Below are positions 40,903 through 49,287 of a DNA stretch of 64,000 bases, piece by piece. The translations under genes were made by a program, and so were the position numbers. The stretch is from Escherichia coli (GTDB lineage Bacteria > Pseudomonadota > Gammaproteobacteria > Enterobacterales > Enterobacteriaceae): NCBI RefSeq assembly GCF_046105845.1, contig NZ_CP151004.1. The stretch is one strand, 5' to 3'. The notes below the pieces were generated by a model, which was given only the letters and a program-made list of their open reading frames with translations, was not told the origin of the DNA and did no database searches. Within the stretch, counting starts at the first letter, position 1. Every line of letters begins with the position of its first letter.

Positions 40903-42885
40903 ATGTCACGTCCGCAATTTACCTCGTTGCGTTTGAGTTTGTTGGCTTTGGCTGTTTCTGCCACCTTGCCAACGTTTGCTTTTGCTACTGAAACCATGAC
41001 CGTTACGGCAACGGGGAATGCCCGTAGTTCCTTCGAAGCGCCTATGATGGTCAGCGTCATCGACACTTCCGCTCCTGAAAATCAAACGGCTACTTCAGCC
41101 ACCGATCTGCTGCGTCATGTTCCTGGAATTACTCTTGATGGTACCGGACGAACCAACGGTCAGGATGTAAATATGCGTGGCTATGATCATCGCGGCGTGC
41201 TGGTTCTTGTCGATGGTGTTCGCCAGGGAACGGATACCGGACACCTGAATGGTACTTTTCTTGATCCGGCGCTGATCAAGCGTGTTGAGATTGTTCGCGG
41301 ACCTTCAGCATTACTGTATGGCAGTGGCGCGCTGGGTGGGGTGATCTCCTACGATACGGTCGATGCAAAAGATTTATTGCAGGAAGGACAAAGTAGTGGT
41401 TTTCGTGTCTTTGGTACTGGCGGCACGGGGGACCATAGCCTGGGATTAGGCGCGAGCGCGTTTGGACGAACTGAAAATCTGGATGGTATTGTGGCCTGGT
41501 CCAGTCGCGATCGGGGTGATTTACGCCAGAGCAATGATGAAACCGCGCCGAATGACGAGTCCATTAATAACATGCTGGCGAAAGGGACCTGGCAAATTGA
41601 TTCAGCCCAGTCTCTGAGCGGTTTAGTGCGTTACTACAACAACGACGCGCGTGAACCAAAAAATCCGCAGACCGTTGAAGCTTCTGATAGCAGCAACCCG
41701 ATGGTTGATCGTTCAACAATTCAACGCGATGTGCAGCTTTCTTATAAACTCGCCCCGCAGGGCAACGACTGGTTAAATGCAGATGCAAAAATTTACTGGT
41801 CGGAAGTCCGTATTAATGCGCAAAACACGGGGAGTTCCGGCGAGTATCGTGAACAGATAACAAAAGGAGCCAGGCTGGAGAACCGTTCCACTCTATTTGC
41901 CGACAGTTTCGCTTCTCACTTACTGACATATGGCGGTGAGTATTATCGTCAGGAACAACATCCGGGCGGCGCGACGACGGGCTTCCCGCAAGCAAAAATC
42001 GATTTTAGCTCTGGCTGGCTACAGGATGAGATCACCTTACGCGATCTGCCGATTACCCTGCTTGGCGGAACCCGCTATGACAGTTATCGCGGTAGCAGCG
42101 ACGGCTACAAAGATGTTGATGCTGACAAATGGTCATCTCGTGCGGGGATGACTATCAACCCGACCAACTGGCTGATGTTATTTGGCTCATATGCCCAGGC
42201 ATTCCGCGCCCCGACGATGGGCGAAATGTATAACGATTCTAAGCACTTCTCGATTGGTCGCTTCTATACCAACTATTGGGTGCCAAACCCGAACTTACGT
42301 CCGGAAACTAACGAAACTCAGGAGTACGGTTTTGGGCTGCGTTTTGATGACCTGATGTTGTCCAATGATGCCCTGGAATTTAAAGCCAGCTACTTTGATA
42401 CCAAAGCGAAGGATTACATCTCCACGACCGTCGATTTCGCGGCGGCGACAACTATGTCGTATAACGTCCCGAACGCCAAAATCTGGGGTTGGGATGTGAT
42501 GACGAAATATACCACTGATCTGTTTAGCCTTGATGTGGCCTATAACCGTACCCGCGGCAAAGACACCGATACCGGCGAATATATCTCCAGTATTAACCCG
42601 GATACCGTTACCAGCACCCTGAATATTCCGATCGCTCACAGTGGCTTCTCTGTTGGGTGGGTTGGTACGTTTGCCGATCGCTCAACACATATCAGCAGCA
42701 GTTACAGCAAACAACCAGGCTATGGCGTGAATGATTTCTACGTCAGTTATCAAGGACAACAGGCGCTCAAAGGTATGACCACTACTTTGGTGTTGGGTAA
42801 CGCTTTCGACAAAGAGTACTGGTCGCCACAAGGCATCCCACAGGATGGTCGTAATGGAAAAATTTTCGTGAGTTATCAATGGTAA
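40903..42885 (+). CDS. chuA: TonB-dependent outer-membrane haem/haemoglobin receptor ChuA
   Basis: 660-aa ORF with signal peptide, TonB-box-like region (ETMTVTAT) and aromatic C-terminus ending ...VSYQW. Confidence 0.95.
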   Translation: MSRPQFTSLRLSLLALAVSATLPTFAFATETMTVTATGNARSSFEAPMMVSVIDTSAPENQTATSATDLLRHVPGITLDGTGRTNGQDVNMRGYDHRGVLVLVDGVRQGTDTGHLNGTFLDPALIKRVEIVRGPSALLYGSGALGGVISYDTVDAKDLLQEGQSSGFRVFGTGGTGDHSLGLGASAFGRTENLDGIVAWSSRDRGDLRQSNDETAPNDESINNMLAKGTWQIDSAQSLSGLVRYYNNDAREPKNPQTVEASDSSNPMVDRSTIQRDVQLSYKLAPQGNDWLNADAKIYWSEVRINAQNTGSSGEYREQITKGARLENRSTLFADSFASHLLTYGGEYYRQEQHPGGATTGFPQAKIDFSSGWLQDEITLRDLPITLLGGTRYDSYRGSSDGYKDVDADKWSSRAGMTINPTNWLMLFGSYAQAFRAPTMGEMYNDSKHFSIGRFYTNYWVPNPNLRPETNETQEYGFGLRFDDLMLSNDALEFKASYFDTKAKDYISTTVDFAAATTMSYNVPNAKIWGWDVMTKYTTDLFSLDVAYNRTRGKDTDTGEYISSINPDTVTSTLNIPIAHSGFSVGWVGTFADRSTHISSSYSKQPGYGVNDFYVSYQGQQALKGMTTTLVLGNAFDKEYWSPQGIPQDGRNGKIFVSYQW

Positions 42886-42933
42886 TCATCTGCCCCGATA
42901 TTTCGGGGCATTTATCTGGAAGGAAGAGAGACA

Positions 42934-43962
42934 ATGAACCACTACACACGCTGGCTTGAGTTAAAAGAACAAAATCCCGGAAAGTACGCGCGTGACATCG
43001 CAGGTTTAATGAATATTAGCGAAGCAGAACTGGCATTTGCACGCGTCACGCACGATGCGTGGCGGATGCGCGGCGATATCCGTGAAATTCTGGCGGCGCT
43101 CGAAAGTGTTGGCGAGACCAAATGTATTTGTCGTAATGAATATGCAGTCCATGAGCAAGTTGGTGCGTTCACAAACCAGCATTTGAACGGACATGCCGGA
43201 TTGATCCTCAATCCACGCGCGCTGGATTTGCGTCTGTTTCTCAATCAATGGGCCAGTGTTTTCCACATCAAAGAAAATACGACTCGTGGCGAACGCCAGA
43301 GTATTCAGTTCTTTGATCATCAGGGCGATGCATTACTAAAAGTTTATGCCACCGACAATACCGATATGGCGGCATGGAGTGAGCTTCTGGCACGGTTTAT
43401 CGCCGATGAGAATACGCCGCTTGAGTTAAAAGCCGTTGATGCGCCAGTCGTTCAAATGCGAGCCGATGCCAGTGTGGTCGAGCAAGAGTGGCGGGCGATG
43501 ACCGACGTTCATCAGTTTTTTACGTTGCTCAAGCGCCACAACCTGACGCGCCAACAGGCGTTCAATCTGGTGGCAGACGATTTGGCCTGCAAAGTATCCA
43601 ACAGTGCGTTGGCGCAAATTCTTGAATCTGCACAGCAGGATGGCAATGAAATCATGGTGTTTGTTGGCAACCGTGGCTGCGTACAGATTTTCACTGGCGT
43701 GGTAGAAAAAGTGGTGCCAATGAAAGGTTGGCTGAATATTTTTAACCCGACGTTTACTCTTCATCTATTAGAAGAGAGCATTGCTGAAACCTGGGTAACC
43801 CGTAAACCTGCTAGTGACGGTTATGTGACCAGTCTGGAATTGTTTGCCCATGATGGTACGCAGATAGCGCAACTTTATGGTCAACGTACAGAAGGCGAAC
43901 AGGAGCAAGCGCAATGGCGTAAGCAAATTGCTTCGCTGATACCGGAAGGCGTTACTGTATAA
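42934..43962 (+). CDS. chuS: Cytoplasmic haem oxygenase / haem utilisation protein ChuS
   Basis: 342-aa ORF immediately downstream of chuA. Confidence 0.92.
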   Translation: MNHYTRWLELKEQNPGKYARDIAGLMNISEAELAFARVTHDAWRMRGDIREILAALESVGETKCICRNEYAVHEQVGAFTNQHLNGHAGLILNPRALDLRLFLNQWASVFHIKENTTRGERQSIQFFDHQGDALLKVYATDNTDMAAWSELLARFIADENTPLELKAVDAPVVQMRADASVVEQEWRAMTDVHQFFTLLKRHNLTRQQAFNLVADDLACKVSNSALAQILESAQQDGNEIMVFVGNRGCVQIFTGVVEKVVPMKGWLNIFNPTFTLHLLEESIAETWVTRKPASDGYVTSLELFAHDGTQIAQLYGQRTEGEQEQAQWRKQIASLIPEGVTV

Positions 43963-44022
43963 CGTATAATTAACGGGAGGTCTGGCTATTTATTGTTGGG
44001 CCTCTTTATATTAATCAATCGA

Positions 44023-44553
44023 TCACACCAGATAATCAATATGCTGATGGCGTACCAACTCATTGATCCGCTTAAGATTGAGGATCATCATGATATTGTG
44101 TTTATGGCAGTAGAACGTTTTTAGCGATATTTTCAGTTTCTCCAGAATATCTTCCGTTGTCATTTGATTCGCAATGCAGCTCAGAACCTGATGCTGCTTG
44201 CGCGAAAGGGACACATCCGCTTCAGGCACAGAGCAGTAACTGCCATTGATGAGTGCGACAAAGTCGATGATGGTGATAGTTCGCGGAACAAAGGTCACCG
44301 GTACTTTCCCCAGGCAGCGTTTAATATTAAAGGGGGAGAAAATAATCACATGGACAGGTTTTAATCGTTCAATTTGAGTGAGCAAATTAGAATGAAATAC
44401 ATTATTCATTAATGTATCAATAATGACGAAGGCATGCTGATGCAACATTACGTCGATCTCTTCTTCGTTCTGTATATGAACGACATTACCTTTACTCAGA
44501 ATGTTTTTCATCGCAGTGAAGAACATCGTATCCCTGGTAATTATAAGAAACAT
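44023..44553 (-). CDS. dctR: LuxR-family regulator DctR (YhiF)
   Basis: 176-aa AT-rich ORF with C-terminal LuxR-type HTH. Confidence 0.9.
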   Translation of the reverse strand: MFLIITRDTMFFTAMKNILSKGNVVHIQNEEEIDVMLHQHAFVIIDTLMNNVFHSNLLTQIERLKPVHVIIFSPFNIKRCLGKVPVTFVPRTITIIDFVALINGSYCSVPEADVSLSRKQHQVLSCIANQMTTEDILEKLKISLKTFYCHKHNIMMILNLKRINELVRHQHIDYLV

Positions 44554-44708
44554 AACCGACTCCTGGTGCGGACATTAACTTTATAATCAGTTTGCCAAAG
44601 GTAATTAACAGGACAGGGCTTATAATAATAATAGTTAGCTGGCTGTGTATTAATTTGATGTAATGCATGATGCAGATGCTGAGAAAGCATCTGCATCTCT
44701 CGGTGGTG

Positions 44709-45275
44709 TTATTTGACCAGCTCAGGTGTTACCTGACTCACCGCATTGGTGTAGTAAGGCGCGCCCCAGCCCGGTTCCGGCCAGAATGCACCATAGCCGT
44801 AATCCCACAGGTTATAGGTGGTATTAACCACTTCTCTCAAATGCCACACCTGGATGCCCTGCATATTCACTTCGAGGAAGTTATACGGGACTTTATTGAT
44901 AAAGCCAGGTTGTTCACCCTGAATGGTACCGAGGATGGTAACAAAGTGATTACGATAGTTCACTGGATCAAGGAAGCCGCTTTGTCTGGCGAGCAGTCGG
45001 CCCTGATAGTTGGCTTCAATATCAGGCTTCGCATAGCTATCCAACGGTAATACAGCGATTTCTAACAACGTATCCGTTTTGCCATTGATAACGTTGATAA
45101 CCTTCCCACCAAAGCGCGCTTGTTGACCAACATATAACCCCGGCTGGTTATGAACAGCAACAAAACTTTTTTGAATATCAGGTTGGTTATTGCCTTTGAT
45201 ATTTTGCGGAATTGAACTACATGCGGCAAGCAAAAATGAAAGGCTGAGGATGAGTGCACCTTTTGTCATGTTCAT
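44709..45275 (-). CDS. slp: Starvation-inducible outer membrane lipoprotein Slp
   Basis: 188-aa sequence from internal Met (MNMTKGALILSLSFLLAACSS, lipobox LAAC); the ORF extends 11 codons upstream. Confidence 0.9.
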   Translation of the reverse strand: MNMTKGALILSLSFLLAACSSIPQNIKGNNQPDIQKSFVAVHNQPGLYVGQQARFGGKVINVINGKTDTLLEIAVLPLDSYAKPDIEANYQGRLLARQSGFLDPVNYRNHFVTILGTIQGEQPGFINKVPYNFLEVNMQGIQVWHLREVVNTTYNLWDYGYGAFWPEPGWGAPYYTNAVSQVTPELVK

Positions 45276-45518
45276 GTTACTATCCTTATCAACAAATATT
45301 AAAACCATAATAGATATTTCTTTATAGTTTTCATCTGATTCTGAGGCGATATGCCTGATAGTAACGTAAACCTGTCTGATGTTTATATCCCTCTGTTTAG
45401 TTTAATTCTGTTAATTTTGGGGCGTGACATGAGTATCCATCGCCCCATAAAATAGCCTTTTTTTAAAGGTACATAAAATCTATTTTATTCAATGATTATA
45501 AAGCGCTAATGTTCAATA

Positions 45519-46742
45519 TTATGGGATTATATTCTGGTAATGATTTGATAAGCGAATTCTTTTGCCAGTTGGTATTTCTATTTCCACCCCATAATTTATA
45601 GTTTTTTCATCAGGTAGCGATCTCTTTAAATAAGGTGCGCATGACATTTTTTTTGGGTTAAGCGTCTCGCGTTGAAATACTTCGAATTGATATTCAGACA
45701 TTTCTGCCCATGTTTGAATTTTATTGTATCGGGAGAGTGTCGTAAAGGCTTTAACTTGCTTATAACATTGTTTTTTGAATTCTTGCTGATATTTTAATAT
45801 GTCATTGTATGAAATATTGGTTATCCTGGCCTCTAAGAATTTAATTATTGTCGAAGCAATTTCCGCTTTTGCTCGTAAAAAGTTGTCATTAATGGTTAAT
45901 AATGTTGAAAATAAACCTTCGATTTGTTTGTCAAGATATTGTTCGTCTTTATATAATTTGGGGGTAGGGTGTTCTTTATGTGAAAAAATAGTGTCACCTA
46001 AATTTGCGTCAGTGAAATTTATATTAAGTAGATCTTCGAAATAAAACCTTGACAAGGTTAGAACGAACCCGGACAGGTTCTGTCCTGTCATATTGAAATC
46101 AATAAAGTTGGTTCCGGCAAAGACTTTCATCCTGTTTTTATTTTCACTGTGCTCAATATATAACTTCGTCATTTTTTGATACAGGTTTTGAATATCTTTT
46201 ATATTAGTCGGTAAGTCAGCTCGTTGTTCAGCAATAAAATTAGTATCTGAAAACGTGGTTTGGACACTGAATGTTATGGGTATTCCCTCTTCTACGCTAA
46301 TTTTAGTTATGATTGCCTTGTCGGGTTTAGGATTAGCGACAACAATGATTCGACATTCAGCACTTTTGTTCTTTTCGTATCTAATGTTATTAATTTGATT
46401 AAGTAGTCCCTGTGCCTGCCGCGTAAGTGGTGTCGAACTTATCGATTCAATGTTAGTAATAAGACTTACAAGTTGAGCCACAACTTTGGAGTAGTCTGCA
46501 TTTGTATATGTGGTGTTCGTGCGGCACGCATAAATTTGTGGGAGGTGTTTCCGCGCTAAATCATATTGTTCAGGGTTGTATCCTTCTCCAGAGAATGGGG
46601 AATTAATGGGTTGTTGTTCTTCCTGATTATCACAAGGCCACATCGGTGTGTCTGGTGTTTTAACATTGTCGGTATCTGTTGTGCGGTTATAAATATCGCC
46701 GTGATATGTATTTATCATACTTGGGGTAAAGTCAATTGACAT
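45519..46742 (-). CDS. yhiS: YhiS-type hypothetical protein, intact 407 aa; polar N-terminus and a pentapeptide-repeat-like tract
   Basis: ATG at 46742 with SD aagga 6 nt upstream; very AT-rich; no signal peptide or TM segment; central tract [45 protein letters not shown]. Confidence 0.8.
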
Positions 46743-47322
46743 AACATTCCTTATTGTTCATCTATTTCGCTAAATTTTTGTAAATCGGAGAATTAGAGCA
46801 GGAATGGATTTTCTTCTACGCGGAAATAAACACAATGCGCCATATCTTCCTGATATAATTACCTTTAACTTCCCTTTCATTTCCACCCGGTAATATTTGT
46901 GTATAAAAAAAGGGCAGTGATAGTATCGTAAAGGAAAACGTTAACAACTATCAAAAAGCGCTCATTTTAAAAAGTTATGATGTTCTCCGATAGTGTGTGA
47001 AGTGATATTTTTGTGATGTTTTAGATGTGTAATAATGAACCAGGTTAAAGTGTATTTAAAAATGTGTTGTATTGGCGACTGAAATCTGCCCTTTAAAAGG
47101 GGGGATAGCACTGAGACAAAGAGGCATTGCTTCTCCGATAAAATGTCAGAGAAGCATGATTGCGTGGTGATTGTCGATTGATGACTTACTGACGGATCCG
47201 TCATCATTCTCAAAGCATTAGTTAAGTTATTTGTGATTTTTAAGGATTATCCTATCTATGATTTTCTACTCAGAAGGATAAGGCACTCACAATGCTCCTT
47301 ATAGTTTACTGCTGGCATCTAT

Positions 47323-48324
47323 TTAAAATAGCATTTGAGTCAAATAGCCCATCAAGATAGCCATACCTAAGATAACCGTCAGGAATGCAGCTATCATCGG
47401 CATTCTGAACATTGATTTAAGTAATATCACTTCCGTCAGGCTTGCTCCGGCACTGCCGATGATTAATGCCATTAATGCTCCCAGCCCCATTCCTTTTGTC
47501 ATCAGAACAGATGCCAGAGGGATAACCGCCTCTGCCCGGATATACAGCGGAATTCCGACAACGGCGCTCAATGGGATGGCGAAGGGATTATCTGCCCCTG
47601 CATGAGCGGCAATCCACTCTGAGGGAATAAAGCCATAAATAAAAGAGCCTATTAATACCCCTAACAAAAGATATGGCAGTACATCTTTAAACTGTTGCAA
47701 CGCATCTTTGGTGGCTAGTTTTATGGGATTAATACTTACCACAGCTTTGGTACTGCAACAGTTTACTACAGGTTTCTCAATGGCTTTAGCCGCTGGACTA
47801 CAGCAACTCACTTTTATTGGCGTATATGTCGTCCCCGGCGAAGTTTTGGCTGGAGCACAACAATTTGCTGATGAGCTTTTACTGGCAATGATATGACGTT
47901 CAAATCCCAGGGAATCCAGGATAATACTGGCAAGTACGGAGACGCCGGCGGCGATAATCGCGTACAACAAGGTAACTTTCCAGCCAAAGGTCACCCACAT
48001 TAACCCGACGATAATGGGATTAAGTAATGGGGAAACAAATAAAAAAGTGAGGGTCGGACCAAACCCGGCTTTCGCTGATAACAATCCACGTAACATGGGG
48101 ATTGTCGAGCAACTACAGAACGGGGTAACGGCTCCCAACAGAGCAGCCAGGAGATAACCTCTCCCTTTTCTGGCCCCCATCATCTGCTGGATTTTATGGT
48201 CTGGCACCTTTTGTCTTATCAGGCTGACACCGGCACTAATCACTATAAACAGCAAAGAAAGCTCGACGGCGAGAAACACAAACATCTCTGCGGCATCTTG
48301 CAGCATCGCAAGCCAACTACTCAT
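47323..48324 (-). CDS. Cys-rich polytopic permease (DUF318 / ArsP-like, TPFCSCS motif)
   Basis: Start taken at ATG 48324 (MSSWLAMLQ...), which has SD gagg; an alternative ATG lies at 48336. At least 8 hydrophobic segments, motif AVTPFCSCSTIPML, central loop with three CC pairs. Confidence 0.8.
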   Translation of the reverse strand: MSSWLAMLQDAAEMFVFLAVELSLLFIVISAGVSLIRQKVPDHKIQQMMGARKGRGYLLAALLGAVTPFCSCSTIPMLRGLLSAKAGFGPTLTFLFVSPLLNPIIVGLMWVTFGWKVTLLYAIIAAGVSVLASIILDSLGFERHIIASKSSSANCCAPAKTSPGTTYTPIKVSCCSPAAKAIEKPVVNCCSTKAVVSINPIKLATKDALQQFKDVLPYLLLGVLIGSFIYGFIPSEWIAAHAGADNPFAIPLSAVVGIPLYIRAEAVIPLASVLMTKGMGLGALMALIIGSAGASLTEVILLKSMFRMPMIAAFLTVILGMAILMGYLTQMLF

Positions 48325-48349
48325 ACGTAACCTCATTGAATAAATCTAT

Positions 48350-48369
48350 ATTTCCAGAATAATCGAAAT
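48350..48369. promoter_or_regulatory. 20-bp dyad box 1 (ATTTC-N10-GAAAT) in the divergent permease/regulator promoter region
   Basis: atttccagaataatcgaaat; second near-identical copy 37 bp away. Confidence 0.4.
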
Positions 48370-48386
48370 GAAATTCAGATCAAGAT

Positions 48387-48406
48387 ATTTCTGGTATTAT
48401 CGAAAT
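48387..48406. promoter_or_regulatory. 20-bp dyad box 2 (ATTTC-N10-GAAAT), candidate operator of the adjacent ArsR-like regulator
   Basis: atttctggtattatcgaaat; about 25 bp upstream of the regulator ATG. Confidence 0.4.
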
Positions 48407-48431
48407 ATCAACCAGACAAAGGGGGTGTCAT

Positions 48432-48728
48432 ATGCAGTTGGAAGAAGTTGCTAAAGCGCTGAAAGAGCTAGGTCACCCGACCCGTTTGTTCATATTCAAA
48501 CACCTGGTCAAAGCGGGGGAACAAGGTTTGCCGGTCGGTGAGTTGCAAAAGCAGCTTGGGATACCCGGCTCTACACTCAGTCACCATATTTCAGCACTGG
48601 TATCGGTAGGGCTGGTCAAACAAAACCGTGAGAGTCGGACGCTGATGTGTGTTTCGCAATACGCAATGCTGGAAGCGATAATTGAATTCTTACGCGAGGA
48701 GTGCTGCGTAAATAGCAAAATTGCCTGA
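48432..48728 (+). CDS. ArsR/SmtB-family winged-helix regulator, atypical (no CVC site; C-terminal CC pair)
   Basis: 98-aa ORF with ATG and strong SD (aaaggggg); HTH region LGHPTRLFIFKHLV...LGIPGSTLSHHISALVSVGLV; C-terminal EECCVN. Confidence 0.8.
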   Translation: MQLEEVAKALKELGHPTRLFIFKHLVKAGEQGLPVGELQKQLGIPGSTLSHHISALVSVGLVKQNRESRTLMCVSQYAMLEAIIEFLREECCVNSKIA

Positions 48729-48777
48729 TGCGCTACGCGCTACAGATTTCATGCCATATATTGAATTTGCACGGTTT

Positions 48778-48816
48778 TGTAGGTCGGATAAGACGCGTTA
48801 GCGTCGCATCCGACAT
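48778..48816. repeat. REP (repetitive extragenic palindrome) element
   Basis: tgtaggtcggataagacgcgttagcgtcgcatccgacat resembles canonical E. coli REP units (gccggataaggcg...cgcatccggc); lies between convergent genes. Confidence 0.6.
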
Positions 48817-48861
48817 AAACGAAGCGCACTTTACCAACTATCGGCAGTGGATATCGCCGCT

Positions 48862-49287
48862 TTATTTCAGGCGTTTACCCGCTTCATCAACCACTTTCTC
48901 GCCATCTTCCTTGGTGAACGCGCCTTGTTGCGCATTTGGCAGAATTTCCAGCACCACTTCTGAAGGGCGGCACAGGCGAGTTCCCAGCGGCGTCACCACA
49001 ATCGGGCGATTAATCAGAATCGGGTGCTGAAGCATAAAGTCGATTAACTGATGGTCAGTAAATTTATCTTCTGCAAGGCCCAGTTCCTCATACGGCTCGA
49101 CGTTTTTACGCAGCAGCGCGCGTACGGAAATCCCCATATCGGCAATGAGTTTGACCAGCTCATCGCGCGTTGGCGGTGTTTCCAGATAATAGATAATGGT
49201 CGGTTCTGTACCGCTGTTGCGGATCATCTCCAGCGTGTTACGCGACGTGCCGCAGGCCGGGTTGTGATAAATGGTAATGTTGCTCAT
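48862..49287 (-). CDS. arsC: Arsenate reductase (glutaredoxin-coupled) ArsC
   Basis: 141-aa ORF, N-terminal MSNITIYHNPACGTSRNTLEMI with catalytic Cys. Confidence 0.95.
   Translation of the reverse strand: MSNITIYHNPACGTSRNTLEMIRNSGTEPTIIYYLETPPTRDELVKLIADMGISVRALLRKNVEPYEELGLAEDKFTDHQLIDFMLQHPILINRPIVVTPLGTRLCRPSEVVLEILPNAQQGAFTKEDGEKVVDEAGKRLK

Follow-up and report, generated by a model that had tools for sequence, protein, structure and literature searches.

The yhiS gene of the Escherichia coli DNA analysed here (a stretch of 64,000 nucleotides from contig NZ_CP151004.1, hereafter the window) is intact and under coding constraint, and its product contains a short, degenerate core that appears from its sequence to be of pentapeptide type and to form the sole recognisable element of the protein. 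The interpretation preferred here, given about an even chance of being right, is that yhiS is a real, selectively maintained yet dispensable coding gene confined to E. coli and Shigella, in whose product the pentapeptide-type core would serve as scaffold and a variable helical domain would provide an interaction surface. Both the gene and its intact form already feature in databases, as a hypothetical protein; what is new is the evidence for the degenerate core, together with hyperdivergent mosaic alleles that retain residual purifying selection. Coding constraint, pentapeptide-type core and deep mosaic alleles amount to a first testable description of yhiS, a y-gene on which K-12 cannot inform because its copy is broken.

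The reading frame and the repeat tract of YhiS

The yhiS frame occupies 45519..46742 on the minus strand, where it runs from an ATG start through 407 codons without interruption or insertion sequence, as read from the list of open reading frames and from the sequence itself. A Shine-Dalgarno motif, AAGGA (46748..46752, minus strand), precedes the start codon with a 5-nt spacer, in agreement with the initial annotation, which had described an uninterrupted frame with a good ribosome-binding site. The exact protein is already present in a public collection, on three contigs, and the DNA is 99.8% identical to the copy in E. coli 19KM1831. The GC content of the gene is 0.355, versus 0.498 for the whole window, and its third-position value (GC3) is 0.326. 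The corresponding GC and GC3 values are 0.448 and 0.480 for slp, 0.401 and 0.497 for dctR, and 0.465 and 0.473 for the permease gene upstream. The GC3 comparison (0.326 versus 0.473-0.497) thus bears out the earlier remark that yhiS is more AT-rich than its neighbours.

The product is soluble. It has neither a signal peptide nor a transmembrane segment, again as first described: the Kyte-Doolittle mean over 19 residues peaks at 0.99, and no hydrophobic core is seen by eye in the N-terminus. Codons 1-60 (46563..46742, minus strand) encode a polar, acidic N-terminus that is probably disordered, to judge from its composition and from AlphaFold2, which returns a pLDDT of 19-44 without secondary structure. 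This segment contains 11.7% threonine, 11.7% proline, 10% asparagine, 10% aspartate and 6.7% serine, has no leucine or alanine, and carries a net charge of -8. It had been characterised as rich in Ser, Thr, Asn and Pro and as effector-like; the enrichment holds for threonine, proline and asparagine, with aspartate in addition, and serine stands at the value just given. The supposedly effector-like composition is not distinctive, because the share of S, T, N, P, I and Q is only slightly higher in residues 1-25 (0.52) than in the AT-coded protein as a whole (0.44).

The repeat tract lies within codons 192-255 (45978..46169, minus strand), a segment delimited by profile comparison and periodicity that consists of a helix followed by ten pentapeptide-like units (residues 206-255 in the canonical register). 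Leucine, phenylalanine or methionine recurs ten consecutive times at a 5-residue spacing, starting from residue 208. This periodicity is equalled in none of 20,000 global and none of 20,000 local shuffles, in which the longest runs are 7-8, and the centre residues are hydrophobic at all ten positions in 90 of 90 distinct full-length variants. Relative to the pentapeptide consensus A(D/N)LXX, position i-1 is D or N in six of the ten units, and position i-2 is small in four (T, S, A, T), the others having K, F, Q, F, E and I. The tract noticed at the outset is therefore real, with ten units instead of the about nine first counted and with the register shifted by one residue.

Profile searches point in the same direction. 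The PDB entries that a profile built from 20 alleles matches best are 2F3L (E 0.006) and 3N90, both pentapeptide proteins and both aligned at residues 202-253. In an exhaustive search of 1.84 billion representatives, the profile matches 12 proteins outside its own cluster and fragments (E 6e-7 to 1e-3), all aligning within residues ~179-328; ten of the 12 were read as sequence, and all ten are obvious pentapeptide-repeat proteins. Comparison of the full alignment with one pentapeptide protein by hhalign gives a probability of 84% over residues 192-255, a stretch in which the helix ahead of the repeats is matched to the part of the target that precedes its own repeats. The tract alone, aligned with four pentapeptide proteins, yields probabilities of 82-95% and scores of 38-51, which lie 12-17 SD above column-shuffled controls (11-12 +/- 2). 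A synthetic consensus repeat, which was selected by no search, gives a score of 25.1 versus 7.4 +/- 1.9 for shuffled columns, a difference of 9 SD.

The curated families are not reached. The window allele has no Pfam match even at E<=10, PF00805, PF13599 and PF13576 included, and none of the Pfam pentapeptide models matches the 20 alleles at E<=0.1; the best sub-threshold matches belong to allele P0068 (PF13599, E 2.2; PF00805, E 5.6). The suggestion of a pentapeptide-repeat-like tract is thus upheld by the tests that depend on residue order and stops short of the Pfam families: the tract is pentapeptide-repeat-like in sequence and below curated-model membership.

Structure prediction, which had been proposed as a check on the fold, gave models of low confidence. 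AlphaFold2 reaches a mean pLDDT of 37 for the full-length protein with 20 alleles and of 49 for residues 186-407 with 12 alleles; in both runs the alignment is shallow, and the tract has a pLDDT of 22-44 without a beta-helix. A Foldseek search of the second model (residues 186-407) against the PDB returns nothing meaningful, the best E being 0.55. If folded like the canonical members, the core would form ~2.5 turns of a quadrilateral beta-helix. Action as a DNA mimic, like that of Qnr and MfpA, was set aside, as ~2.5 turns looks too short for it.

Beyond the core, codons 301-381 (45600..45842, minus strand) form the most variable part of the protein within a predicted helical domain (residues 263-361), as seen from the alignment, dN/dS and AlphaFold2. 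There, 57% of the sites are polymorphic, 12 of the 24 multi-state sites of the protein (three or more states) are found, and the model consists of helices with a pLDDT of 51-74. Codons 382-407 (45522..45599, minus strand; with the sequence INYGVEIE) encode a conserved C-terminal region, putatively a beta-hairpin, which has the lowest entropy and is modelled as two short strands at low confidence.

Allelic divergence, distribution and loss

Between allele classes, yhiS has a dS of 0.18-0.31, a dN of 0.085-0.14 and a dN/dS of 0.38-0.56 (about 0.45), and ranks with the chromosomal loci that differ most from one E. coli strain to another. For slp, dS is 0.02-0.04, with dN and dN/dS both ~0; for dctR, dS is at most 0.12, dN at most 0.01 and dN/dS mostly at most 0.10; for the permease, dS is at most 0.14, dN at most 0.024 and dN/dS 0.05-0.18. 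The Slp protein, encoded 210 bp downstream of yhiS, is identical in eight of nine annotated genomes, and the remaining genome has a single-residue difference. The excess divergence is limited to the yhiS frame, inside which identity is 72-90% per 100 nt; on the slp side it jumps sharply to 97-100%. Each allele is a patchwork of blocks drawn from a small number of deep haplotypes; at least 18 recombination events (Rm) are counted among nine sequences, and the alleles do not track the split between chuA-positive and chuA-negative strains.

Despite this divergence the frame is preserved. No indels separate the intact alleles, across protein identities of 74-96%, and the two most distant alleles differ by 185 substitutions, or 15% of the nucleotides. 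When 185 substitutions are placed randomly, the frame stays open in 0.04% of trials, and 120.8 +/- 5.4 amino-acid changes are predicted versus the 101 observed. By region, dN/dS is 0.21-0.30 in the repeat tract, 0.09-0.39 in residues 258-300, where dS reaches 0.66, and 0.57-0.71 in residues 301-381; the tract is one of the two parts with the lowest values, and no region exceeds 1 at meaningful counts.

The yhiS locus is found in 5416 of 5426 complete E. coli genomes, chromosomal in every case, and at least 80% of the query is present in 4327 of the complete genomes. All 136 named protein matches belong to E. coli or Shigella, the lowest full-length identity being 74%. Among the 1.84 billion representatives, YhiS forms one full-length cluster at the 50% level plus fragments. 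Its orthologues share 74-96% protein identity over 407 residues without gaps, and in a separate set of protein matches there are large clusters of full-length 407-residue proteins, with 8964, 2855, 539 and 394 members. Pfam, NCBIfam and PADLOC return no match, and the sole PHROGs match has an E of 0.28. By tblastn, the phage collection contains no copy, and the plasmid collection gives three matches, each on a record of 4.8-4.9 Mb, apparently a chromosome with the wrong label. Two scans of species-representative genomes, one with the motifs KTPDTP[MK]W and PCDN[QRW]EEQ and one with degenerate DNA for a ten-residue segment, gave no match and missed E. coli itself, and thus say nothing on other Escherichia species. 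In one chuA-positive genome (L004) a 1-nt deletion interrupts the second pattern, and the miss is explained if the E. coli representative is of this type. A literature search on yhiS/b3504 found no functional study of the protein. As far as these data go, yhiS is an orphan of E. coli and Shigella.

The gene is frequently inactivated. In K-12-type genomes an IS5 element lies inside it at nucleotides ~742-746 of the gene (codon 248), as the initial annotation had stated and as reported for K-12, in which yhiS is described as an IS5-split pseudogene (PMC8170033, PMC11677980). IS1 and ISVsa5 insertions occur in other genomes. Sequence comparison places a 1-nt deletion of the O157:H7 copy in an A8 homopolymer (45647..45654, minus strand; codons 363-366), which leaves a 371-residue form, and a 1-nt deletion of two further genomes (L008 and L009) in a T6 homopolymer (45983..45988, minus strand; codon 252). 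The positions of these two deletions suggest slippage-prone sites. The frame is shifted in both EHEC records sampled (O157:H7 and O111:H8), and in the chuA-positive strain TUM11356 a deletion leaves only the first ~126 codons, themselves frameshifted. Altogether the frame is intact in six of the 11 genomes examined, the window included; because broken copies occur in about half of the genomes sampled, selection for yhiS is weak or conditional. The recurrent loss points to a dispensable gene, and a K-12 deletion mutant showed an unchanged chlorhexidine MIC, the one phenotype assayed (PMC8170033).

The 19KM1831 copy (NZ_CP151026.1; 6220-7443 of record L001), one of the six intact ones, is flagged as frameshifted in RefSeq, yet its frame is open for 407 codons and its protein differs from that of the window by two residues; the flag probably arose because the copy was compared with a 371-residue reference protein. 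Automatic frameshift flags at the yhiS locus can therefore be wrong. In NZ_CM135829.1, labelled E. coli DH5alpha, the yhiS query is matched in one uninterrupted piece at 93.7% identity; this label or the assembly may be wrong, because a K-12 derivative should carry IS5 in yhiS.

Genomic setting and upstream region

The yhiS gene belongs to the chromosomal backbone, where slp lies on one side and the ars region on the other; it has no chaperone gene beside it and is not set in a prophage or island. Its neighbours are the same in ten genomes, and the position beside slp is kept. The upstream intergenic region (46743..47322, minus strand; 580 bp) is AT-rich, with a GC content of 0.36-0.37, and its composition and its match to K-12 make it a likely promoter and H-NS-bound region; at least the yhiS-proximal ~260 bp (to window position 47000) match the K-12 arsC/yhiS region. 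Sigma-70-like matches upstream of yhiS are no commoner than in shuffles, and no terminator was found in the upstream region scanned. Rfam models over 43500-49000 give only sub-threshold REP-like matches, outside yhiS. Among the sub-threshold Rfam matches, naRNA4 and ES036 (E 0.02-0.3) fall at 48736-48825, downstream of the ArsR-type gene, and are taken as REP-type elements.

In K-12, the arsC/yhiS and insH/slp regions are listed among the H-NS-bound 'promoter islands' with predicted foreign genes (PMC3661553, Table 1), and a 2026 preprint places yhiS among the loci with strong StpA binding (bioRxiv 10.64898/2026.02.10.705075). Over-expression of YdeO does not induce yhiS (PMC4222967). The H-NS data stem from K-12, where yhiS is disrupted. 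For the source strain of the window, a foreign origin and H-NS silencing of yhiS are plausible on the basis of composition and the K-12 literature. The earlier proposal of a horizontally acquired, H-NS-silenced gene thus agrees with the observed composition, and its regulatory part applies to the K-12 locus, for which H-NS and StpA binding are reported.

Several features of the surrounding DNA may be recorded. Between yhiS and arsC, a 337-residue permease with a Cys-rich loop (CC...CC...CC) is encoded at 47323-48336 (minus strand), divergently from a 98-residue ArsR/SmtB-type regulator at 48432-48728 (plus strand). Several E. coli genomes have this pair, which is absent from the K-12-type and O157:H7 records and may be an accessory metal(loid) module. 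Beyond dctR, homology to the 19KM1831 record identifies chuA and chuS at 40903-43962, a place taken by yhiD and hdeB in K-12-type genomes, so the source strain belongs among the chuA-positive E. coli lineages. The mechanical slp frame at 44709-45308 (minus strand) yields 199 residues from an upstream ATG; the annotated Slp proteins all begin 11 codons later, at MNMTKG, and have 188 residues.

Interpretation and comparison with known systems

In the preferred reading of a maintained but dispensable gene, a disordered acidic N-terminus would lead through a mixed helical and strand region into the ten-pentad core, which would be followed by the helical domain and the conserved C-terminal hairpin. 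The protein would act as a non-enzymatic, protein-binding scaffold, in which the constrained repeat core and the helix after it may provide a rigid frame, and the helical domain, predicted to carry most of the strain-to-strain variation, may set specificity. The AT-rich patch that contains the gene borders the acid fitness island and is bound by H-NS and StpA in K-12, and for that reason yhiS would probably be silent in the laboratory.

Two other accounts start from the pattern of variation. One takes yhiS for a functionless remnant, a foreign gene heading for loss whose frame is open in the source strain only as decay has not yet arrived. Inactivation in at least five independent ways among the sampled genomes would fit, as would silencing in K-12 (PMC3661553), the lack of a phenotype of the K-12 mutant in its single assay (PMC8170033), and a dN/dS that is high for E. 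coli (about 0.4-0.55 versus 0-0.18 in most comparisons of neighbouring genes). This account is judged unlikely: over a nucleotide difference of 15% the frame has remained open and free of indels, with a chance of 0.0004 under random placement; dN/dS is clearly below 1, varies by region and is lowest in the repeat core and residues 258-300; and the full-length clusters of 407-residue proteins are large. The other account would make YhiS a polymorphic, strain-specific recognition protein, built from a pentapeptide scaffold and a variable helical surface, that acts in an unrecognised conflict with a phage, plasmid, competitor or host; balancing or diversifying selection on the helical domain would preserve its long-lived, recombining alleles. 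If true, it accounts for a synonymous divergence ~ten times that of slp, and it draws on the confinement of that divergence to the frame, with near-identity regained on the slp side, on the few deep, reshuffled haplotypes, on the concentration of half the multi-state sites in residues 301-381, and on the independence of the alleles from the chuA split. Yet no region has a dN/dS above 1 at meaningful counts, PADLOC gives no match, the gene is outside any defence island, frequent loss equally fits relaxed selection, and introgression from elsewhere in Escherichia or a local mutation bias in H-NS-bound, AT-rich DNA could yield the same excess of dS; the account is held to be quite improbable. If the divergence reflects selection and not introgression or mutation bias, yhiS would mark an unstudied strain-specific interaction beside the acid fitness island; if it does not, the gene is no more than a foreign orphan of the ordinary kind, silenced and slowly being lost.

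The effector link suggested by the initial annotation is not supported by the analysis and is very improbable. It would make YhiS a type III secretion substrate of the LEE or ETT2 system, with the polar N-terminus as secretion signal and the pentapeptide core binding host proteins, as in PipB2, SopA and NleL. Effectors that contain pentapeptide repeats do exist (NleL; PMC3013003). The N-terminus of YhiS is polar, Leu-free and probably disordered, its core is pentapeptide-like, and an AT-rich, fast-evolving, lineage-restricted and often decayed gene has a profile shared by many effectors. Against this, YhiS has no similarity to SopA, NleL, PipB2 or any solved effector in the PDB (E<=10), the 1.84 billion representatives or Pfam, and its N-terminus is acidic and hardly unlike the rest of the protein in composition. 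The locus is nearly universal in complete E. coli genomes, although most E. coli lack a working type III secretion system, and it sits on the backbone beside slp, away from any chaperone gene, prophage or island. The serotypes O157:H7 and O111:H8 carry the LEE, yet yhiS is frameshifted in both sampled records. The link fails on homology, context and distribution.

With the pentapeptide-containing effectors (PipB2 and SopA of Salmonella, NleL/EspX7 of EHEC) YhiS shares a polar N-terminus, a putative pentapeptide-type module followed by a C-terminal domain, AT-richness and lineage restriction; it differs from them in having no detectable homology and no context linked to type III secretion, and in its near-universal presence in E. 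coli. Its C-terminal part comprises ~150 residues, whereas the HECT-like domain of SopA and NleL has about 400. With the pentapeptide-repeat proteins (PF00805/PF13599; Rfr32, PDB 2F3L; TL15, PDB 3N90) the likeness lies in the 5-residue periodicity with ten L/F/M centres, D or N at i-1 in six units, the pre-repeat helix and a profile similarity far above shuffles. In contrast to those proteins, YhiS stays below every Pfam threshold, has a small residue at i-2 in only four of ten units, and is predicted to hold only ~2.5 turns inside 407 residues, the other ~350 of which are without known relatives.

Like the H-NS-silenced 'promoter island' genes of K-12 (PMC3661553), which are AT-rich, predicted to be foreign and bound by H-NS and StpA at arsC/yhiS and insH/slp, the yhiS of the window is AT-rich; binding and silencing of the intact gene would follow by extension from K-12. 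The closest counterpart is yhiS of K-12 itself (b3504, UniProt P37635; pseudogene yhiS_1/yhiS_2), which is the same gene in the corresponding position, flanked by slp and the ars region. On either side of IS5, the K-12-type DNA is 94-95% identical to that of the window, whereas the copy of the source strain is uninterrupted. The source strain differs further from a K-12-type genome (L002) in having the chu genes beyond dctR and, separating yhiS from arsC, the pair of permease and ArsR-type genes.
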